Shown here piece after piece: positions 7,164 through 60,923 of a stretch of DNA of 64,000 nucleotides (positions within the stretch are counted from its first letter, which is position 1; each line of letters starts with the position of its first letter). The position numbers and the translations under genes are program-made. The notes under the pieces are model-generated. The model ran no database searches. It saw only the letters and a program-made list of their open reading frames with translations, and was not told where the DNA came from. The stretch lies in the sequence record LR597660; one strand, written 5' to 3'. This DNA comes from Escherichia phage T4_ev151.

Positions 7164-7634
7164 TTAATCATGTTTCCACACCCCATCGGTATTTGACCAA
7201 AGTCGCTGATTATCTGATCCTCGCCACAGCTTTTTAGTCGGAAGATTTTTCTCATACTTCCCATCAATAATAACATCAACATATTTAAGCATTTCTAGTT
7301 GTTTAATATCTTCAAACTTATATCCTGTCCACAACCAAATGCTTTTATTGGGATAAAGATTTTTTACTGTTTGAACAATGCAATGAATAACATCTCGATT
7401 GTCAGGATAGAGAGGGTCTCCTCCAGTTATAGTCAATCCTTCTATATAATCATTATTCAAACATTCAATTAATTGCTCTAGTGTTTCGCCAGTGAATGGA
7501 ATACCATTTCTAGCATTCCATGTTGATTTATTATAACACCCTTCACATTTATGCAAACAACCTGTAACGAAAAGAACGACCCTGCAACCAGGGCCATTCA
7601 CAAAATCGCAAGGATAAAATCTATCATAATTCAT
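7164..7634 (-). CDS. nrdG: Anaerobic ribonucleotide reductase activating protein (radical SAM)
   Basis: 156 aa; CxxxCxxC cluster motif GCLHKCEGCYNK; ATGA coupling to nrdD. Confidence 0.9.
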   Translation of the reverse strand: MNYDRFYPCDFVNGPGCRVVLFVTGCLHKCEGCYNKSTWNARNGIPFTGETLEQLIECLNNDYIEGLTITGGDPLYPDNRDVIHCIVQTVKNLYPNKSIWLWTGYKFEDIKQLEMLKYVDVIIDGKYEKNLPTKKLWRGSDNQRLWSNTDGVWKHD

Positions 7635-9448
7635 TGGTGTTTAACCCTATGCATGATTTCTTTGTTTTTACCGAGATTAAATCCGCGTTCGTTCGGATTT
7701 CCCAAATAACCACATGTTCTTCTTATGGTATTCATCTTTTTAGGATCAGTTTCTCCACAAATAGAACAAACAAATCCGTTTTCAGTAGGAGTCATTTCAT
7801 GGGTACTTCCACATGTAAAACATTTATCTACCGGCATGTTAACACCAAAATAATCTAAATGTTGTGCAGCATAATCCCATACGGCCTCAAGGCCTTTTAA
7901 GTTATTTTTCATATCAGGAAGTTCAACATAAGAAATGTGACCACCTGTCGCAATGAAATGATATGGCGCTTCACGAGAAATCTTTTCAAACGGAGTAATA
8001 TTTTCTTCTACTGAAACATGGAAACTGTTAGTGTACCAACCTTTATCGGTAACATCTTTTACGCTTCCATATTTTTCTGTATCTAGTTTACAGAAGCGAT
8101 AACAAAGGTTTTCAGCAGGAGTCGAATATAAACTAAAAGCAAATCCGGTTCTTTCAGTCCACTGTTTAAGATGAGCATTCATTTTAGTTAAAATTTCCTG
8201 TCCAATATCACGACCGACAAGAATATTCAATTCGTGAATACCAATGTATCCTAAAGACACTGAACTTCTGCCGTTTTTAAATAACTCAATTATATCGTCA
8301 TCAGGTTTAAGACGAACCCCGAATGCACCTTCTTGGTAAAGAATAGGAGCAACAGTCGCTTTAACTCCTTTTAAGGAACTAATTCTACACATCAAAGCTT
8401 CAAAACATAAATCCATTCGTTCATTGAACAATTCAACAAATTTCTGTTCATTGAACTGTGTTCCAATATAAGAATCTAACGCGATGCGAGGAAGATTCAG
8501 TGTTACAACACCAAGATTATTACGTCCATCAAGAATTTCATTACCAGTCGAATCTTTCCATACGCTCAAGAAACTACGGCAACCCATTGGAGAAACAGGA
8601 ACAGATGAACCAGTGATAGCTTTATTGTTCTTAGCTGAAATAATATCAGGATACATCCTTTTGCTTGCACACTCTAGAGCAAGCTGCTTAATATCATAGT
8701 TCGGATCGTCTTTGTAAAGATTAACGCCTTCTTCGACGAACATAACAAGCTTAGGAAAAATAGGAGTTATCCCATCACGACCGAGACCTTTAATACGATT
8801 TTTCAGAATTGCTTTCTGAATCATTCGTTCAGTCCAGTCAGTTCCCGTACCAAATGTAATTGTTACAAAAGGAGTTTGTCCGTTTGAACTAAAGAGAGTA
8901 TTTACTTCATATTCATAAGCTTGGAATGCATCGTATACGTCTTTTTCTGTTTTAGATTGAGCATAATTCAACGCATCGGCGATTTGCCATTTTTCTGCAT
9001 CCTCAATATGTTTTGCATAGGTGCGTTTAACATAAGGAGAAAGTACTTTATCTACATTAGCAAAAGTCGTTCCGCCATATTGGTGAGAAGCAACCTGTGC
9101 AGTAATTTGTGCCATAATTGCAGTAGCAACACCGATTGATTTAGGAGTTTCAATCTGCGCATTACCAAGCTTAAATCCGTTCTCAAGCATTCCTTTTAAA
9201 TCTACTAAACAGCAATTAGTAAATGGAAGAGCAGGGGAATAATCAATATCATGGAAATGGATAATTCCGCTTTCATGCGCTTTCATAATAAAAGACGGGA
9301 CCATATTTTTGGCAATGTGTTTAGACACAATACCAGCCATAAGGTCCCGTTGAGTTGGAAAAACACGAGAATCTTTATTAGCATTCTCGTTTAAAAGGTC
9401 TTTATTAGTTTTATGAATCAATCCTTCAATTTCTTTTTCAATTGTCAT
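7631..9448 (-). CDS. nrdD: Anaerobic ribonucleoside-triphosphate reductase (glycyl radical), uninterrupted
   Basis: 605 aa continuous ORF; C-terminal glycyl-radical motif RRTCGYLG; C-terminal Cys cluster. Confidence 0.95.
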   Translation of the reverse strand: MTIEKEIEGLIHKTNKDLLNENANKDSRVFPTQRDLMAGIVSKHIAKNMVPSFIMKAHESGIIHFHDIDYSPALPFTNCCLVDLKGMLENGFKLGNAQIETPKSIGVATAIMAQITAQVASHQYGGTTFANVDKVLSPYVKRTYAKHIEDAEKWQIADALNYAQSKTEKDVYDAFQAYEYEVNTLFSSNGQTPFVTITFGTGTDWTERMIQKAILKNRIKGLGRDGITPIFPKLVMFVEEGVNLYKDDPNYDIKQLALECASKRMYPDIISAKNNKAITGSSVPVSPMGCRSFLSVWKDSTGNEILDGRNNLGVVTLNLPRIALDSYIGTQFNEQKFVELFNERMDLCFEALMCRISSLKGVKATVAPILYQEGAFGVRLKPDDDIIELFKNGRSSVSLGYIGIHELNILVGRDIGQEILTKMNAHLKQWTERTGFAFSLYSTPAENLCYRFCKLDTEKYGSVKDVTDKGWYTNSFHVSVEENITPFEKISREAPYHFIATGGHISYVELPDMKNNLKGLEAVWDYAAQHLDYFGVNMPVDKCFTCGSTHEMTPTENGFVCSICGETDPKKMNTIRRTCGYLGNPNERGFNLGKNKEIMHRVKHQ

Positions 9449-9918
9449 TTTAAACTCTTTCTAAGCTGCTTCTTAAATGAAGCTATTAACTGTGTTTTGG
9501 TGTCAGATTCATTATATTCAAATCCTCTTTGAAGCATCTCGGCCATCATTTCCTCTTTTCCTAAACGAGAAAATTCCTTTGATTTATCTCCAACAAAGTT
9601 AGGGTGAATATTATTTTGGGTGTAATCGGATTTTAAGTAAGTAAGTAAATTTTCTAACCATTCAAGATAATCAACACCCTGTCCCTTTAAGCCAGAACGA
9701 TTAAATTTATGCTTCATTTGACCTTCTGCGGCATTGCAGAGATTACAAAGCAATCCACGTACCTTTCCTGCTTTTGGTCCATTTAATTCATGGTCATGAT
9801 CAAGGTGATTAGCTTGAACATCAGGATTTAGTTCTCGTTGGCAAATTAAGCATTTACCGTTTTGTGCATCATAAAATTTCTGTTTTTCTTCTTTATATAA
9901 TTTGCCAGTCAATAACAT
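9445..9918 (-). CDS. 49: Endonuclease VII (Holliday junction resolvase) gp49
   Basis: 157 aa, matches recalled T4 endo VII (MLLTGKLYKEEKQKFYDAQNGKCLICQREL...). Confidence 0.95.
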   Translation of the reverse strand: MLLTGKLYKEEKQKFYDAQNGKCLICQRELNPDVQANHLDHDHELNGPKAGKVRGLLCNLCNAAEGQMKHKFNRSGLKGQGVDYLEWLENLLTYLKSDYTQNNIHPNFVGDKSKEFSRLGKEEMMAEMLQRGFEYNESDTKTQLIASFKKQLRKSLK

Positions 9919-17496: not shown

Positions 17497-18216
17497 TTAG
17501 GATTCTTCTAAATGTCTTTTCTGAAAAGTTGATACCATACTACGATACGGTTCATTTGGATACCCGTGTTTTATAGCTTCCTTTGTAAATTTTCTCCATC
17601 CATATTTAGTTTCTTTCCAAAGCTCGAATAATTCATCTTCATATTGCCATATAGTTAAATGAGAACGCTTTGCAGCTTTAATTCCATTAATATGCTTTTC
17701 TTTTACTACAGGATTGCTTAGTTTCTTTTTAATAATATTACTAACTTTTCTAACAAAAACTGGGTCCTTATATCGTTGCGAAGTTTTTATTGAAGTGTTT
17801 AATTTAGCTTCCGGCGTGGATGTGACCTCTTTCATCTTTTTCTTCATATGCTGTATATGATTAGGATTTTTCCATAAATTTATAGAATGCTTTTTGCATT
17901 TTATCCTAGTTTCATCTGCAACCTTTCCTCCTTCACCCCCGTATGACAGGTTAACACAGTTTTTTCCATATTTCAATTTACCTGCCATGATATATAATAT
18001 TTCAGCTTGTACCATTTTATCATAATTATCAAAAACTTCTAAAACCGTTTTTGATAATATGTGGTCATTTGACACTTTTACACGTTCTATATAATTTCCA
18101 CTACCAACATACGAATCATTGATGTTATTAGTTATATGTCGACCATAATAATATTTCTTAATACCTGTCTTTAAATTTAATATTTCAGTTTTATAGATAG
18201 TAAAATATTTTTTCAT
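17497..18216 (-). CDS. GIY-YIG homing endonuclease (Seg-like)
   Basis: 239 aa; KKYYYGRH...SYVGSG GIY-YIG core near N-terminus; lysine-rich C-terminal region. Confidence 0.75.
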   Translation of the reverse strand: MKKYFTIYKTEILNLKTGIKKYYYGRHITNNINDSYVGSGNYIERVKVSNDHILSKTVLEVFDNYDKMVQAEILYIMAGKLKYGKNCVNLSYGGEGGKVADETRIKCKKHSINLWKNPNHIQHMKKKMKEVTSTPEAKLNTSIKTSQRYKDPVFVRKVSNIIKKKLSNPVVKEKHINGIKAAKRSHLTIWQYEDELFELWKETKYGWRKFTKEAIKHGYPNEPYRSMVSTFQKRHLEES

Positions 18217-19295: not shown

Positions 19296-20309
19296 TCATT
19301 TATAATAACTTCGGTGGTTTTCAAGATAGACCTTCTCAAGGAAGTCATCCCAGAAACTCATGTCTACTTTTTGCTGCATACCGTTCTTAGAAGCTTCAGT
19401 AGATGCTGCTTCTACTTGATCGACCACATCTTCCAAAAACTCTTGAACCGTTTTAAATGGATGTTTACCCAACTTCACGTCGAGAATAAATGGAGCATCT
19501 TGGAGTGGATAAACCAAGTCACCAGTTTTGTAAATTTCCAATAGTTGGAGTCCACCACGACAAGCATGACTCTGTGCTTTCCAGTCAATGCCCTCATTCG
19601 CTTCAGCCTTACGAGCGCGTTCACCGTATTCAGCATCTAATTTGTTCAGTGACTGCTTAAGCTCAATAAGAGAAAGCGTTGTCTGATATTTACGACCCAA
19701 CACTGTGTAAAACGTTTGTGGGCCTGTTTTCTCATGATTATGGAACACCCATTCACAGAATTCGTTTTCTGGAAGACGATGCTTAATATCTTCAACTTTA
19801 GTGCGACGCTGCTTAATAGAACCATCTTCTTGGTAATCAACCCATTGCTCGGGGATTTGATTAACTACTTTCAATACATCACGTAATGCAGCCAAACGAG
19901 AACCCTTGACACCGTATTTAGAAGCTTGCTTGCGGACATATCCTAAATAGGATTTCATGTTAGTCGTATAAAAACGAGAACGATTGTCTTGAATAAACTT
20001 CCACACATCAGGCAAATCAGATTTAACCACTAACTCAGGTGGAGTATGAAGCATATCTAATGCTACGGTTTCACCATCTGCTGCTAATTTAAAGAAATAC
20101 TTAAGACTGTATAGTTCATGGTCAATATCATCTTTAGTGTTTTTAGATGATGTGTTGTTGGTGTTTTTACTCATGTGCTCTTTGACGTTTCCGATAAGAA
20201 TATCGCGAGCAGGAGGAACAAAGATTTCTTTAAAATCTACATCAGATTCTGGGGTAGAAGTTCCATAAAGATGACTACCAAAATAGCTTTTCATTACTGT
20301 TTTCATCAT
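19296..20309 (-). CDS. Putative nucleotidyltransferase (Pol-beta superfamily fold)
   Basis: 337 aa; N-terminal GSHLYGTSTPESDVDF (G[GS]x9-13Dx[DE]) and downstream DMLH. Confidence 0.55.
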   Translation of the reverse strand: MMKTVMKSYFGSHLYGTSTPESDVDFKEIFVPPARDILIGNVKEHMSKNTNNTSSKNTKDDIDHELYSLKYFFKLAADGETVALDMLHTPPELVVKSDLPDVWKFIQDNRSRFYTTNMKSYLGYVRKQASKYGVKGSRLAALRDVLKVVNQIPEQWVDYQEDGSIKQRRTKVEDIKHRLPENEFCEWVFHNHEKTGPQTFYTVLGRKYQTTLSLIELKQSLNKLDAEYGERARKAEANEGIDWKAQSHACRGGLQLLEIYKTGDLVYPLQDAPFILDVKLGKHPFKTVQEFLEDVVDQVEAASTEASKNGMQQKVDMSFWDDFLEKVYLENHRSYYK

Positions 20310-20767
20310 TCAACCTTATATTCAATAACAGGACATACTTTAGCTTTACGAGCTTTTAAAAATTCAACAATAATCGATTTCTTGGGTTGAATAGGAGGTA
20401 AACCTTTATACGCCCTATCAATATTTTCTACGTGTAAAGCATAATCCTTTTTCCATTTATAATCTTTATATTTTTCACGCAAATGTGCAGGAATAACAAA
20501 TGAACCGATAATAAGTAAAACAACCAAAAGCGCAAGTATAAATGCCGATGGAAGAAGAGTCCATAAACTACCGAAAATAAGCCAACGTTGTAGGCTTTCT
20601 GCACAAATAATTGTTAGCCCTACGAGTATAGCACACCCAAAAATAGAAACGAAAAATGTAGGAATGGCAATAGACCAAAAATATGCGCATAGTGTCTTAG
20701 GTCGTTGCCATTCATCGTTAAACAATTTGAATAATTTATAGTGCCAAGAGTTTTCATTAATAATCAT
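20306..20767 (-). CDS. Integral membrane protein
   Basis: 153 aa, three or four hydrophobic helices. Confidence 0.55.
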   Translation of the reverse strand: MIINENSWHYKLFKLFNDEWQRPKTLCAYFWSIAIPTFFVSIFGCAILVGLTIICAESLQRWLIFGSLWTLLPSAFILALLVVLLIIGSFVIPAHLREKYKDYKWKKDYALHVENIDRAYKGLPPIQPKKSIIVEFLKARKAKVCPVIEYKVE

Positions 20768-20769
20768 AA

Positions 20770-21291
20770 CTATCCTTTCATTGAAGGCGTAACAGTTGTT
20801 AAATACTTAATCATAGCTTCAGCTTCTGATTTTGATAGTGAAATTTCTCCATTGTTTTGACGAATAGAAATAAAATCCGGATGACGGTCACCACCAGCTT
20901 TTAAAACACACATATAAGTATCAGTTTCATCTTCAATATCTGAAATGATTGAAGCAGTTCCACATGAATGTGGTTTTTGATAAATCAATACAGCTTTTCT
21001 TCCACCGTTTGACTGTTCATAAACTTTTAACACATCAAACAAATCACTTCTTTTATCAATAGCTAAAATGTTATTTTCATCTTCAATGTTAAATCCTTCG
21101 GATACTTCATAAAGTGTCACCCATAAATCGCCAATATCAATAACAGCGTTCACTTTTCCATGACTTTCAAGAGAATGACAAATTTTCTTGATTTCGTCAT
21201 AACTCATTTTAATAATATCATCTCCTTGAATAAGAAAGATGTCATTTTTAAATTCAACACGAATTAAACCACTTCCACTTGAAATAAACAT
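20770..21291 (-). CDS. Hypothetical protein (tandem paralog A)
   Basis: 173 aa; C-terminus SEAEAMIKYLTTVTPSMKG resembles neighbour. Confidence 0.55.
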   Translation of the reverse strand: MFISSGSGLIRVEFKNDIFLIQGDDIIKMSYDEIKKICHSLESHGKVNAVIDIGDLWVTLYEVSEGFNIEDENNILAIDKRSDLFDVLKVYEQSNGGRKAVLIYQKPHSCGTASIISDIEDETDTYMCVLKAGGDRHPDFISIRQNNGEISLSKSEAEAMIKYLTTVTPSMKG

Positions 21292-29184: not shown

Positions 29185-29658
29185 TTATTTGAATGATTTG
29201 ACGTACTGAATAGAGCCTTTGCTATTCACAAAGGCAATTTTACCATTTTTATTATACATGGTAGCAGTACGCTGATAACCATAAGTTTGTTTACCAGATT
29301 GATAACCAACTAATGCAAAATTATCTTCGCCCATTTTATTCTGTTTAGCGCGGATGCGTTCATGGCCATGTGCCATAAGAACCTTAGCATCACCAGTTGC
29401 AATGGATCGACGAGTTTTTTCATCTTCAACTGTATTAACAAAGTCGTCAAATGAATCAAATTTAGCATGAGATTTATTATACAGTTTTCCATCTACTGCA
29501 TAATTATATCCCTGTACATCCATCTCAACTTCTGTACCATCATCCAATACAGCAGTGATTTTTTGACCTTTTTTAAATTTCAAAAGATCAGTAAAAGATT
29601 CAGCAATAATTTGAGAATTAATAGCTGCTTCAGTAATAAATTCTTGATATGTTTTCAT
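29185..29658 (-). CDS. Internal protein family member (capsid-targeting sequence MKTYQEFITE)
   Basis: 157 aa; N-terminus MKTYQEFITEAA with LxE gp21-protease site; AAAGGAAA SD. Confidence 0.65.
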   Translation of the reverse strand: MKTYQEFITEAAINSQIIAESFTDLLKFKKGQKITAVLDDGTEVEMDVQGYNYAVDGKLYNKSHAKFDSFDDFVNTVEDEKTRRSIATGDAKVLMAHGHERIRAKQNKMGEDNFALVGYQSGKQTYGYQRTATMYNKNGKIAFVNSKGSIQYVKSFK

Positions 29659-29667
29659 ATGTTTCCT

Positions 29668-30084
29668 TTAAATGTAAATATTTTTGCCGTAATACTTGTA
29701 CCAGTGTGGCTTCATTAAAATTTTTTCATCAAGTCGTTGTTGACTCAATTTAATAGCTGATTTGCATGGATTATAATCATTTTTCCATTCTGCTGGAATA
29801 TCGCTGATGTCAGGAACTTCAGTATCTTTTATACTGAACCCGCGTTTTAAGCATTCCGTTATAATGTCTGATTGACGCTTTCGCAAAAATTCTAACTTAT
29901 CGTAAAAGAAAGTAACATGACCAGAACCTAAAATAAACTCGGAAGATATTTTAAAATCTTTAACCCGCTTACCATTTGCAACATGTTTACGAACTATACC
30001 AAAAACACGCGGCAATTCACGGTATTCTGCGATTAAATGTTGATCAGCAAGTTCAGATACTAAAGTCAAATTAATACGAGTCAT
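29668..30084 (-). CDS. denV: Endonuclease V (pyrimidine dimer glycosylase)
   Basis: 138 aa, [17 protein letters not shown]...; diverged from recalled T4 DenV; GGAGGG SD. Confidence 0.9.
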
Positions 30085-30109
30085 TTTATCCCTCCAAGTA
30101 ACTGTGAAT

Positions 30110-34732: not shown

Positions 34733-35398
34733 TTAAAATTTCATTTTTCGACCTTTAAACCATCCTTCTGGAATTGGGTCAGTTTTCTTAATACGTTTAG
34801 AAACTTTTTCATCTAATGAATGAATCCACATCATACCAAATTGGGAATTCTTTTCGCCCTGTTGATGTTTATTTCTGGCGTGAGATTCTTTCATTTTATT
34901 AATAGTTTCAGGAGTATGGGTCTTACCCAAGAAAGATTTAGTATTTAAAAATTTCTCTCTATACTTAGGATTATCCCAAAGCCGTTTAAACCTTTCTGAA
35001 CCCATTTTACGATATTTTTCTTTAAGGTCTGGGTCGTTCTCAAATCTGGTTTTAAAAGCGGCAGCTCCTTTTAAGGAAGCTTCTTTCTTTTTATCCAAAT
35101 ATTCTTTAGTGTTTAAATGGTCCCAACCACCTTCACCACCTAATTTCAAATTATAAACATCAGGGCGCTTTAAAAACTCTTCAGTCACAATATTCTTTTC
35201 TGACTCAAACATAGAGGTTTTATCGTCAAAGAACTCTAATATTTCTTTAGAAAAATTTTCTATACCATACTTATCTTGGGCTCTTTTTAATAATTTACCA
35301 GAACCCATATATCCATCATCTAAATTTTCGGTAGAATGAGCGCCTATATAGATTTTATTATTAATTTTATTTGTTATTTTATAAATGTAATGGAACAT
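34733..35398 (-). CDS. segB: GIY-YIG homing endonuclease SegB
   Basis: 221 aa; MFHYIYKITNKINNKIYIGAHS GIY-YIG core; sits inside the tRNA cluster as in T4. Confidence 0.85.
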   Translation of the reverse strand: MFHYIYKITNKINNKIYIGAHSTENLDDGYMGSGKLLKRAQDKYGIENFSKEILEFFDDKTSMFESEKNIVTEEFLKRPDVYNLKLGGEGGWDHLNTKEYLDKKKEASLKGAAAFKTRFENDPDLKEKYRKMGSERFKRLWDNPKYREKFLNTKSFLGKTHTPETINKMKESHARNKHQQGEKNSQFGMMWIHSLDEKVSKRIKKTDPIPEGWFKGRKMKF

Positions 35399-35850: not shown

Positions 35851-35937
35851 TGGTACGAGAAGTGGGACTCGAACCCACAAGGAAATCATTCCGCAGCATT
35901 TTAAGTGCTGTGCCTTTACCAATTTGACCATTCTCGC
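35851..35937 (-). tRNA. tRNA-Leu (anticodon TAA), long variable arm, CCA encoded
   Basis: 87 nt; acceptor gcgagaa/ttctcgt, anticodon loop cTTAAaa. Confidence 0.8.
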
Positions 35938-35943
35938 GCTATA

Positions 35944-36552
35944 TTATTTATTACGTGAAAAAGACTGTTCTATCAATTCTGGACACTTTCGTTCTATCCA
36001 TTTTCTAGCTTTTTGTGGGCTTATACCTATTATTTTAGCAGCTTTACTAACCCATCCAAATTTAGAATAATCGATTTTAACTAATTCTTCGTAAATTTCA
36101 TCAGTTAAAATCTTTTCATTAATATTTACCAGTAAATGATATAATTTATTATCATTAGCAATTTTAATGAATCTTTTATAGTTTCCGCCTTTACTTAAAC
36201 CTAATGAAGTAATTGCAGATGATATAGTAGCCGAATTTAATAGTGCGTTTAAAATTTCTTCATCACTAACATTATAACGCTTTCTATTATTTTTAATATT
36301 TTTACCAGCAAAAGTATCAGTTTGCGAATGGCAATTTGGGCATAATAATCTTAAATTTGATTTAAGATGATTTTTGTTATTTCCATCAATATGGTCTAAT
36401 TGTAGAACAATATGCTTATTTTGCCATTTTGAAATTTTACAAATTGCACACTCATATGGAAAAATATTTTCTTTTATTATTTTGTCTTTCAGCTTTCCTG
36501 TACTAAAATTTGGATGTTTTCCTTCAAAAATTTCAGCTAATTTAGTATCCAT
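35944..36552 (-). CDS. HNH homing endonuclease
   Basis: HNH motif LQLDHIDGNNKNHLKSNLRLLCPNCHSQTD; ATG 36552 (track TTG 36576); stop 6 nt from tRNA-Leu 5' end. Confidence 0.75.
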   Translation of the reverse strand: MDTKLAEIFEGKHPNFSTGKLKDKIIKENIFPYECAICKISKWQNKHIVLQLDHIDGNNKNHLKSNLRLLCPNCHSQTDTFAGKNIKNNRKRYNVSDEEILNALLNSATISSAITSLGLSKGGNYKRFIKIANDNKLYHLLVNINEKILTDEIYEELVKIDYSKFGWVSKAAKIIGISPQKARKWIERKCPELIEQSFSRNK

Positions 36553-36634
36553 AATATGATTCCCAATTATTAACAAAGGCTCTCAAACAAGAACCCTTGA
36601 TGATAGAGGGTATTAATCAGTGCGGTATGAGTTA

Positions 36635-43638: not shown

Positions 43639-44505
43639 ATGAAAAAATCTAACACAGTTCAATTTAGATACATATATAAAACAACCGTTACTAATCCGAA
43701 AGGATTAGTACGGGTTTATATTGGTAAACATGAATCTAGATATTTTGATTTAGAAAATGATAAGTATAGAGGTTCCGGTGATTATATTAAAAAGATACGT
43801 AATAAACCTGGTTATAAAATAGATTTTGAAATAATTGAATTTGTTTCTACTTATGAAATTCTCAATTCAAGAGAAAGATATTGGATTTCGAAATATAAAT
43901 CATCTGATATTCTATGTACCAATATAAAATCCGGCGGTGATGGTTTTTCATCCGAAGATTTGAAGAGAATGTGGTCTAATCCTGAATATAGGAAAGCTCA
44001 ATTGAAGGCATTAGCTAAATCAACGTCAACTAAAGAATTTTCAGAGAAAATATCTAAAATAAACAAAGAAAGATGCGCATCGCCAGAATATCGAAAGAAA
44101 ATGAGTAATGCGATGAAAACTGCTTTTGAAAATGATCCAACATTAAAAATTCGTATTTCTAATACCGTTAAATCTTTATGGAAATCCGATGAATATAGAA
44201 ACAAATTAATCAATCATCCAGGAAAAATAGAAGGAACGAAACAATCATGGAATGATCCTTTGATAAGAAAATCGAGATTAGATGCTAGAAATAAAAAACT
44301 AAGATCAGTTGAACCTTGGATTAGTATAGAAAAAGTCAAAAAACTTTGGGAGGATTTGGGAAAACCACATCCACAGAAATACAAATGGTTTAGAGAAAAA
44401 GCAATTGAACACGACCTCCCGGATGTAAGTTATAACGCAATTTTAAAAGCGTTGAAAAAATGTGATTATAAATTTACATCATTAGAGAATTCAACAATTG
44501 GCTAA
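43639..44505 (+). CDS. GIY-YIG homing endonuclease (Seg-like) with NUMOD-type repeats
   Basis: 288 aa; FRYIYKTTV...VRVYIGKH core; repeats WSNPEYRK, ASPEYRKK, WKSDEYRN. Confidence 0.75.
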   Translation: MKKSNTVQFRYIYKTTVTNPKGLVRVYIGKHESRYFDLENDKYRGSGDYIKKIRNKPGYKIDFEIIEFVSTYEILNSRERYWISKYKSSDILCTNIKSGGDGFSSEDLKRMWSNPEYRKAQLKALAKSTSTKEFSEKISKINKERCASPEYRKKMSNAMKTAFENDPTLKIRISNTVKSLWKSDEYRNKLINHPGKIEGTKQSWNDPLIRKSRLDARNKKLRSVEPWISIEKVKKLWEDLGKPHPQKYKWFREKAIEHDLPDVSYNAILKALKKCDYKFTSLENSTIG

Positions 44506-44539
44506 TATACTTCCAATGAGCGCTGATTTAGGAGAATCC

Positions 44540-45034
44540 ATGGAAGGTTCTTCTATCGACGTCACCTTTACCGCTCAATTAGAAACAGGTGAAACGTTAG
44601 TATCTATAAATATAACTAGTTACGAAGAAACTCCTGGGGTTTTAGTAGAAGAAAATCGCTTATATGGAACATATGAATCTGTATTTGGTTTCGGAAATGA
44701 CGCGTTGAAATATCGTTTAGGCGATGAATTTAAAACTGCTGCTTCATGGGAAGAACTTCCTACTGATTCTGATACTCAGTTGTATTTGTGGAAAGCTCCT
44801 CAAAATCTCCAGAAGACATTCACTTACGAAGTAACATTAATATATGACTACCAAGAACAAAGTGAATCTGGAGGTTCTGGCAGTAATTCTAGGTCATCTT
44901 CTGATACTACTGAACCAACGGATCCTCCTGCTCCAGTAAGAAAAACTCTCGTTAAAAATTATACTAAAACTATAGTTGGAAATTGGAGTCGTTGGGCTAA
45001 TAAGCTGAGAGAATATGTCTATGCAAGACCATAA
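44540..45034 (+). CDS. Hypothetical acidic Ser/Thr-rich protein
   Basis: ATG 44540 with GGAG SD (track TTG 44498). Confidence 0.5.
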   Translation: MEGSSIDVTFTAQLETGETLVSINITSYEETPGVLVEENRLYGTYESVFGFGNDALKYRLGDEFKTAASWEELPTDSDTQLYLWKAPQNLQKTFTYEVTLIYDYQEQSESGGSGSNSRSSSDTTEPTDPPAPVRKTLVKNYTKTIVGNWSRWANKLREYVYARP

Positions 45035-45611
45035 ATATTTTTATTTGTATTCAATAACTAATAAAACAACAGGAAAAATTTATGTAGGCGTCCACAAAAC
45101 TTCAAATTTGGATGATGGGTATATGGGTTCTGGCGTTGCCATTAAAAATGCCATTAAAAAATATGGCATAGATAATTTTTATAAGCATATTATAAAATTC
45201 TTTGAATCTGAAAAAGCTATGTATGACGCAGAGGCAGAAATAGTCACAGAGGAATTTGTTAAATCTAAGAAAACTTATAATATGAAACTAGGCGGTATCG
45301 GTGGCTTCCCAAAACATAACACAGCGGGTGCTAAAAATGGATTTTACGGTAAATCTCATTCGCGTGAAACTAGATTGAAAATTAGCATTAAATCGTCTAG
45401 AAAAAGAGGGCCTAGAGGGCCTAGAGGTAAAACTCTGAAGATGTGTGGCGCCAATAACCCAAGGTATGGCAAAATAGCCCCTAATGCTAAATCTGTTATT
45501 ATCAACGGCGTTTTATATAAAAGTATTAAAATCGCAGCTAAAGCTCTTAATATAAATTATAGTACCTTAAAGGGGCGAGTTAAAGCGGGGTATTATAAAT
45601 GTCAGGATTGA
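45015..45611 (+). CDS. GIY-YIG homing endonuclease (Seg-like)
   Basis: 198 aa; [21 protein letters not shown] and NGFYGKSHS motifs. Confidence 0.75.
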
Positions 45612-52905: not shown

Positions 52906-54710
52906 TGAAACAAAATATTAATATCGGTAATGCTGTAGATGATGGTACCGGTGACTACCTGCGTAAAGGTGGTATAAAAATAAATGAAAACTTTGATGAG
53001 CTTTATTACGAGCTTGGTGACGGTGATGTTCCATATTCAGCTGGTGCCTGGAAAACTTATAATGCTTCATCAGGACAAACACTAACAGCAGAATGGGGAA
53101 AATCATATGCCATTAACACTTCATCTGGAAGAGTAACTCTACAACTTCCTAAAGGAACCGTTAATGATTATAATAAAGTAATTAAAGCTAGGGATGTATT
53201 TGCAACATGGAATGTTAATCCAGTTACTCTAGTAGCCGCTTCTGGTGATACTATTAAAGGATCATCGTCATCAGTTGAAATTAATGTTCAATTTAGCGAT
53301 TTAGAATTAGTTTATTGTGCTCCAGGACGTTGGGAATATGTCAAAAACAAACAAATTGACAAAATTATTAGTTCAGATATTAGTAATGTAGCACGTAAAG
53401 AATTTTTAGTCGAAGTTCAAGGACAAACAGACTTTTTAGATGTTTTCCGTGGAACTAGCTATAATGTTAATAACATCCGAGTAAAACACCGCGGTAATGA
53501 ATTATATTATGGCGATGTATTTAGTGAAAACAGTGACTTTGGTTCTCCTGGGGAAAATGAAGGCGAATTAGTTCCTCTTGATGGATTTAACATTCGATTA
53601 AGACAGCCTTGTAATATTGGTGACACTGTTCAAATTGAAACATTTATGGATGGTGTATCACAATGGAGAAGTTCATATACAAGACGCCAAATAAAAGTAC
53701 TGGATTCAAAACTAACATCAAAGACTTCTTTAGAAGGAAGCATTTATGTTACTGATTTATCAGCGATGAAATCAATTCCATTCTCTGCATTTGGATTAAT
53801 TCCTGGTGAACCCATTAATCCTAACTCTCTTGAGGTTCGTTTTAATGGAATTTTACAGCAGCAGGCTGGAACAGCTGGATATCCTCTGTTTTTGTGTGAA
53901 GGCGCTAATTCAGATACGCAAGCAGGATGTATATCTCTTGGTGGTGAATGGAAAGAATCAAACACCGATTATTCTATAGAATATGAAGACGGAAAACCTA
54001 TCAGTCTTTTATTTGATAGAAAATTTGAATCCGGTGACATTATCGTTATAACATGGTTCAATAATGATTTAGGAACTCTTTTAGAAAAAGATGACATCAT
54101 TGAATTGACTAATGACCGTTATGTTAGTAAAGGATCATCTACTGAAGTTACTGGTGATGTAGCCTTAACAGATTTTGATAAAATCGGTTGGCCAAATGTT
54201 GAAAAAGTTGATTCTTATACTAGAACGTATAATTCAATATCATCTATTTTCGACAGCATTTATCCTGTTGGTTCAATTTATGAAAATGCTATAAATCCGA
54301 ATAATCCAGCGACTTATATGGGATTTGGTTCATGGAAATTATTTGGTAAAGGGCAGGTTTTAGTAGGATGGAATGATGATGTTACAGATCCAAACTTTGC
54401 ATTAAACAATAATGATTTAGATTCTAGCGGAAATCCTTCACATACCGCCGGTGGAACAGTTGGTACAACATCAGTAACGCTTGAAAACGCAAATCTTCCT
54501 GCGACTAAAACTGATGAAAGAGTTTTAATTGAAGACGAAAATGGATCGGTTATTATTGGAGGTTGCCAATATGACCCAGATGAAACTGGTCCTATATATA
54601 CAAAATATCGTGAAGACTACGCAATAACAAACTCTTCACATACTCCTCCTGCTAATATTAGTAATATTCAACCGTCTATTACTGTATACCGTTGGATAAG
54701 GATTGCATAA
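52905..54710 (+). CDS. 10: Baseplate wedge protein gp10
   Basis: 601 aa (T4 gp10 is 602 aa). Confidence 0.95.

Positions 54711-58414: not shown

Positions 58415-60923
<2,509 letters not shown>

Follow-up and report, generated by a model that had tools for sequence, protein, structure and literature searches.

We analyzed 64,000 nucleotides of DNA from Escherichia phage T4_ev151 (LR597660; hereafter, the window), which correspond to approximately 34.7-98.4 kb of the phage T4 genome, and found that the intron position of T4 nrdD is unoccupied in the window nrdD gene. This gene is most probably (a probability of about 0.9 in our estimate) an ordinary, functional intron-less allele of a T-even-type phage (Tequatrovirus) with the standard unoccupied insertion site, a reading that draws on the sequence of the gene, its insertion site and its relatives. 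Intron-free nrdD is already known in such phages.

The nrdD gene and the unoccupied intron position

The window nrdD (7631..9448, minus strand), annotated as the large subunit of class III (anaerobic) ribonucleoside-triphosphate reductase, is an uninterrupted ORF of 605 codons with an ATG start, comprising 1818 nt with no break in frame in the ORF list. Both this list and the gap-free alignment with T4 agree with the coordinates and length reported in the first-pass annotation, which had been made from the sequence alone. In Pfam searches, the product matched NRDD (PF13597, E=1.7e-171) with residues 21-604, covering positions 1-562 of the 562 in the profile, as well as Gly_radical (PF01228, E=1.2e-25). 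In a PDB search, residues 1-605 aligned with residues 1-605 of T4 NrdD (1H78) at 1405 bits. The glycyl-radical motif RRTCGYLG (7700..7723, minus strand), with the codon of G580 at 7709..7711, is the same as in T4, in agreement with the earlier description of this motif as intact. Cys79, Cys290 and Cys543/546/561/564 (T4 numbering) are all kept in the window protein; from the literature on the T4 NrdD structure, we take C79 and C290 to be the active-site cysteines and C543/C546/C561/C564 to be the C-terminal Cys4 metal site. Judging from these matches, the gene encodes a full-length class III ribonucleotide reductase NrdD, a glycyl-radical enzyme. The function is assigned on the basis of 99.7% identity to the solved and characterized T4 enzyme: the protein would act as an NTP reductase supplying dNTPs during anaerobic infection and would be switched on by the product of the adjoining nrdG gene.

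In T4 (NC_000866), nrdD is annotated as two joined pieces, with the I-TevII gene located inside the intervening sequence. The T4 gene is longer than the window gene by 1033 nt, and local alignment places the extra block after nucleotide 538 of the CDS. When this block is removed, the T4 gene measures 1818 nt and is co-linear with the window nrdD, with zero indels. The exons are 97.2% identical; the 50 nucleotide differences between the window gene and spliced T4 nrdD comprise 44 synonymous codons and two non-synonymous changes, V65 of T4 being F65 and R417 being Q417 in the window, and the two proteins are identical at 603/605 residues. The T4 exon junction falls between positions 8911 and 8910 of the window, and the alignment runs across it without a gap, in line with the claim made from the sequence alone that the T4 intron site is empty here. 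No group I intron was detected by Rfam at the gathering score anywhere in the 64-kb window (in the positive control, the Intron_gpI match in the T4 locus scored 105 bits), and tblastn searches of the window with T4 I-TevII and its homolog from phage JK45 as queries returned no match at E<=1e-3.

The first-pass annotation was right that T4 nrdD contains a group I intron, which spans 1033 nt, but misnamed its endonuclease as I-TevIII. Table 1 of PMC2988022 lists I-TevII as the enzyme of the T4 nrdD intron and I-TevIII as that of the nrdB intron, and I-TevIII is described as an HNH enzyme, complete in RB3 but truncated in T4 (PMC2988022; PMC1865063). The suggested check for an I-TevIII recognition sequence, carried out with up to three mismatches (<=3), gave no match in the window, a result of little meaning given that the target gene, nrdB, lies outside the window, as do td and nrdA.

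The insertion site, intron lineages and exon flanks

The empty insertion site, delimited as positions -10 to +20 around the T4 exon junction, is located at 8891..8920 (minus strand) and reads GCTTATGAAT before and ATGAAGTAAATACTCTCTTT after the junction. The same 30 bp in T4 read GCTTATGAGT and ATGAAGTGAACACGTTATTC, which together we take to be the listed I-TevII recognition sequence in its 30-bp extent (REBASE / Belfort & Roberts 1997). The window site and the T4 junction are identical at 23/30 positions and differ at -2, +8, +11, +14, +15, +17 and +20, with all seven differences being silent; the base at -2 is G in T4 and A in the window. Thus, 7/50 of the nrdD differences lie inside the 30-bp site, compared with 0.8 expected at the gene-wide rate of 2.75%, and this clustering is significant both by the hypergeometric test (P=1e-5) and in a scan-statistic permutation (p=0.003). 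A search of the window for the T4 I-TevII site, allowing <=3 mismatches, found no match.

The 30-bp site is the same in the window, T2, T6 and RB3. Across 21 tabulated uninterrupted alleles (20 IMG/VR contigs and the window), the window-type site is one of the two commonest variants, each accounting for 7/21. Furthermore, the window states at -2, +11, +14 and +15 are also present in distant (~73% identical) intron-less relatives, and for this reason the window haplotype looks ancestral rather than like an escape variant.

A second nrdD intron lineage came to light through JK45 and 235Ecol030PP, for which the match to the junction query was confined to its exon-I half. This JK45-type intron occupies exactly the T4 insertion point, is 1044-1045 nt long (1045 nt in JK45) and is ~66% identical to the T4 intron, with an endonuclease that has 56% identity to I-TevII. 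Rfam Intron_gpI stays below the gathering score on this sequence; we call it an intron because it is homologous to the T4 intron, has the identical insertion point and, on removal, leaves a restored 605-codon ORF. The JK45-type intron is carried by Shigella phage JK45, 235Ecol030PP, Lv5cm, F27 and about 40 more records, and is absent from the window.

The exons of EC128, fPS-2, G8 and Manna, which carry the T4-type intron, are 91-95% identical to those of T4, and yet these phages have the exact T4 flank, with perfect identity to T4 for 46-154 nt on the left side of the junction and 31-34 nt on its right side. Similarly, four JK45-type phages, one of which is filed under Mosigvirus, have in common an invariant flank, GCGTATGAGT before and ATGAAGTAAATACACTTTTC after the junction, that is unlike that of T4. 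At the population level, nine intron-bearing genes thus suggest that each intron lineage travels with its own exon flank on diverse backbones. Because each lineage keeps its own invariant flank, we assign the cluster of seven differences to the intron-bearing alleles and not to the window.

The proposed mechanism is co-conversion, in which double-strand-break repair would copy the exon flank along with the intron, giving rise to lineage-specific flanks. Were an intron-bearing phage to infect the same cell, I-TevII would be predicted to cut the window site about 13-15 nt 3' of the junction; I-TevII cleavage at 13-15 nt 3' of the insertion site was reportedly described by Bell-Pedersen and co-workers in 1990. 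Repair following the predicted cut would bring in the intron and the exon flank together. Flanks specific to each lineage are as expected from double-strand-break repair with co-conversion, a mechanism that is described in PMC2988022.

The base at -2 follows the presence of the intron: it is G in 9/9 intron-bearing alleles read, and A in 20/20 uninterrupted IMG/VR alleles as well as in the window, T2, T6 and RB3. In both lineages, nucleotides 14-19 of the intron (GCUCAU) are able to pair with the exon end AUGAGU, forming P1 with a terminal U.G pair. The computed energy of this duplex is -5.1 kcal/mol with G at -2 and -1.5 kcal/mol with the A of the window. Given that the P1 pairing weakens with A, a splicing constraint plausibly keeps G at this position.

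Salmonella phage SG1 is intron-less, yet has G at -2 and a T4-type exon-II flank. Hence, the flank and the intron are not perfectly linked, and the SG1 flank may be a footprint of intron loss.

Frequency of the intron and alternative explanations

A 120-nt query across the window junction matched 683 records in the phage collection, ~618 of which are uninterrupted; an intron of either lineage is present at the nrdD junction in ~69 records, that is, roughly 10%. Megablast with the T4 intron sequence yielded 27 matching records in all, 25 of these at 97-100% coverage, so that a search with this intron alone underestimates the number of intron-bearing phages. The records with the T4 intron include many T4 isolates, and the others are T4T, RB55, RB59, PST, Manna, G8, RPN226, fPS-2, U5 and EC128. 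In IMG/VR, 20 contigs contained a back-translated pattern of the uninterrupted junction, versus a single contig with the exon-I/intron pattern. Intron-free nrdD is the majority state in sequenced relatives, at about nine in ten, and the T4 intron is the exception.

This distribution fits the published record. T4 is described as an outlier in its endonuclease load, with its three introns being variably present among T-even phages (PMC2988022; PMC2993671), and the variability of the T4 introns was already being documented in the late 1980s (Pedersen-Lane & Belfort 1987 and Quirk et al. 1989, as cited in PMC2988022). Variable T4 introns are also documented by Sandegren & Sjoberg 2004 (as cited in PMC2993671), whose nrdD sequences AY262143/145/146 were among the matches to our intron and junction queries.

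An alternative that we consider unlikely is that the window-type site is an allele refractory to I-TevII, in which silent changes at +8 to +20, around the cleavage position, were selected to block recognition or cleavage. Such an allele would account for the ~90% of these phages that stay intron-free. Moreover, the differences between the window and T4 take in all third-codon positions from +8 to +20, together with the first base of a Leu codon at +15; the 7/30 differences within the site stand out against the gene-wide 2.75%; the window holds no T4 site within three mismatches; and among intron-less records, SG1 comes closest to a T4-type junction, at 94.4%, with none at >=95% over the whole query. 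However, intron-linked flanks explain the hypervariable tract equally well, both lineages having an invariant flank on diverged backbones, and a refractory allele is the less parsimonious of the two. The sharing of four window states with distant intron-less relatives, outlined above, also gives the site an ancestral look, which is not that of derived escapes. Two points of background further count against a refractory allele: I-TevI, I-TevII and other enzymes of the GIY-YIG type are tolerant of many substitutions, and Sandegren and Sjoberg are said to have reported, in 2004, that related intron-less phages can be targets of homing, the efficiency of which is limited by flanking homology. If the site were refractory after all, about 90% of T-even-type phages would owe their protection against the nrdD intron to synonymous changes at the cleavage site, and the A/G difference at -2 would further penalize the splicing of an intron arriving without co-conversion.

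Precise intron loss in the window lineage, for example, through recombination with either spliced cDNA or a co-infecting phage that has no intron, appears very improbable. SG1, with its intron-type flank and no intron, indicates that precise loss is apparently possible. In contrast, the window is without a loss footprint, its base at -2 being A and its flank the common intron-minus one, and from 538 nt left of the junction to 473 nt right of it, its sequence shows no difference from that of RB3. Its closest records, RB27, T2, G2133 and RB3, are all intron-less, and thus there is no intron-bearing close relative; replacement of the region by recombination with an intron-less phage would, in turn, be indistinguishable from never having had the intron. 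As for a cryptic or degenerate intron remnant kept in frame inside the ORF, the case that the first-pass annotation had named as contrary to its claim, the gap-free alignment and the Rfam search rule it out, leaving it a negligible probability: the gene has exactly the 1818 nt of spliced T4 nrdD, with no indels, its product shares 603/605 residues with the crystallized T4 protein, and none was found by Rfam.

Our preferred reading remains that of an ordinary intron-less allele, which matters little for the window itself, an uninterrupted nrdD being the T-even-type default. Its value is for annotation: nrdD is to be recorded as a single intact gene rather than a split CDS, it contains no intron endonuclease, and I-TevII is the endonuclease that goes with this site. 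The existence of two intron lineages with their own flanks, the G/A state at -2 that tracks occupancy and the apparent loss footprint in SG1 might be of interest to homing research, but these are population-level by-products and not properties of the window.

Endonuclease genes and the nrdD locus in comparison with other phages

Using synteny with T4 combined with Pfam, PHROGs and tblastn, we identified six free-standing homing-endonuclease-like genes (seg/mob-like and HNH) in the window. Two are seg-like homing endonuclease genes that match phrog_314: one encodes 239 aa (17497..18216, minus strand; 1.8e-30) and is an insertion relative to T4, between T4 positions 54334 and 54373, and the other encodes 288 aa (43639..44505, plus strand; 1.2e-25) and is inserted after gene 5 relative to T4. 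The tRNA cluster contains a segB homolog (34733..35398, minus strand), the 221-aa GIY-YIG product of which has 83% aa identity to T4 SegB, and, at its end, a gene for a 202-aa HNH endonuclease (35944..36552, minus strand; phrog_14736, 5e-124). The remaining genes are a segC homolog (45015..45611, plus strand; 198 aa), combining GIY-YIG, NUMOD3 and an I-TevI-type DNA-binding domain, and a mob-like HNH homing endonuclease gene (59341..60153, plus strand; 270 aa), which, by comparison with T4, is an insertion between genes 13 and 14 and has 46% aa identity to the N-terminus of T4 MobD. T4 mobB, mobC, mobD and I-TevII were not found in the window.

Therefore, the earlier observation that the empty intron site coexists with endonuclease genes elsewhere in the DNA is correct, but the contrast it drew is not noteworthy, the intron-free state being that of the majority and the genes being unrelated to the intron. 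None of the six is related to I-TevII or sited at the nrdD locus, and because they are unrelated to the nrdD intron, with no tblastn match to I-TevII, they tell nothing about the empty nrdD site.

On one side of nrdD lies nrdG (7164..7634, minus strand), encoding the radical SAM activase (Fer4_12, 2.3e-48, and Radical_SAM in Pfam). The start of nrdG and the stop of nrdD overlap by the four bases ATGA, so that there is no mobC- or seg-type gene between the two. On the other side is gene 49 (9445..9918, minus strand), the product of which, endonuclease VII, is a Holliday-junction resolvase and not a homing endonuclease. Here it is the stop of gene 49 that overlaps the start of nrdD, again by the four bases ATGA, so that the two genes have no endonuclease gene between them. 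The 49-nrdD-nrdG block of the window is thus without any of the optional insertions found in relatives, namely, the intron, mobC and other endonuclease genes.

Several known phages differ from the window in this respect. T4 nrdD (sunY) contains the group I intron with the GIY-YIG gene I-TevII, both absent from the window, and T4 additionally has mobC between nrdD and nrdG (NC_000866), which the window lacks. In RB3 and T6, nrdD and nrdG are separated by an extra homing-endonuclease gene, and in fPS-2, G8 and Lv5cm an endonuclease gene lies between 49 and nrdD, neither of which is present in the window; in Manna, unnamed ORFs are located between 49 and nrdD. The window has no exact counterpart among deposited records, the nearest being ~97% identical over 25 kb; in the 3-kb region around nrdD, identity is ~98% to many Tequatrovirus genomes, RB27, T2 and vB_EcoM_G2133 among them. 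The closest likeness is to T2, T6, RB3 and RB27, in which nrdD (sunY) is a 1818-nt uninterrupted ORF in the same order, 49-nrdD-nrdG, with 96-98% nucleotide identity to the window gene, from which it differs only by scattered, mostly silent substitutions.

Intron-bearing and uninterrupted nrdD alleles in relatives

Among the related phages, we identified a second lineage of group I intron in nrdD, typified by Shigella phage JK45 (locus L002, 3061-4105) and also found in the loci L003, L031 and L032, which is inserted at exactly the same point as the T4 intron. The JK45-type intron is 1044-1045 nt long and approximately 66% identical to the T4 nrdD intron, and the endonuclease it encodes shares 56% identity with I-TevII. 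It occurs in about 44 phage records, one of which, F27, is filed as Mosigvirus, and nrdD in these phages is annotated as split CDSs. The match of this intron to the Rfam Intron_gpI model fell below the gathering score.

Salmonella phage SG1 nrdD (L033, 1007-2824) contains no intron, yet its exon-II flank is of the T4 type and its base at position -2 is G (GCGTATGAGT before the junction and ATGAAGTGAACACGTTATTC after it). SG1 is the only one of the uninterrupted alleles seen with an intron-type flank, which may be the footprint of precise intron loss or, alternatively, a fully susceptible homing site.

Optional insertions around nrdD

In the relatives, the 49-nrdD-nrdG block harbors several alternative endonuclease insertions (loci L001, L028-L031, L034 and L036). 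T4 carries mobC in this block, RB3 and T6 encode a homing endonuclease between nrdD and nrdG, and fPS-2, G8 and Lv5cm possess a different endonuclease gene between 49 and nrdD; all of these are absent from the window, where genes 49, nrdD and nrdG abut via ATGA overlaps (7600-7640 and 9440-9450), with no endonuclease insertion. In Manna, unnamed ORFs lie between 49 and nrdD.

Endonuclease genes and variable regions compared with T4

Elsewhere in the window, a mob-like HNH gene (59341-60153, 270 aa), with an N-terminus 46% identical to T4 MobD, is inserted between the head-completion genes 13 and 14, where T4 has no gene. Another insertion relative to T4, in the nrdC.9/nrdC.10 region, is a 239-aa seg-like gene (17497-18216) that matches PHROG 314 (homing endonuclease; 1.8e-30), with no Pfam match at 0.01. 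Downstream of gene 5 (43639-45611), two GIY-YIG seg-type genes are located close together. The 288-aa seg-type gene in this region has no T4 counterpart. The window segC homologue, with NUMOD3 and I-TevI-type DNA-binding domains, spans 198 aa, whereas T4 segC is annotated as only 140 aa, the first 135 of which are 98.5% identical to the window protein; T4 segC therefore looks like a truncated copy.

Window regions 20306-21291 and 29185-30095 are typical hypervariable cassettes. In place of T4 mobD, the window has two unrelated ORFs, one of which is y05I-like. It also lacks the T4 internal-protein genes ipII and ipIII, and its denV, which has diverged to 78% nucleotide identity with T4 denV, is adjoined by a DUF7412 gene (29185..29658). 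Finally, ARAGORN and Rfam identified seven tRNA genes (Arg, Met-CAU, Thr, Ser, Pro, Gly and Leu), compared with eight in T4, where tRNA-Gln adjoins tRNA-Leu; in the window, the tRNA-Gln position (region 35851-36559) is occupied by a gene for a 202-aa HNH endonuclease (35944..36552).
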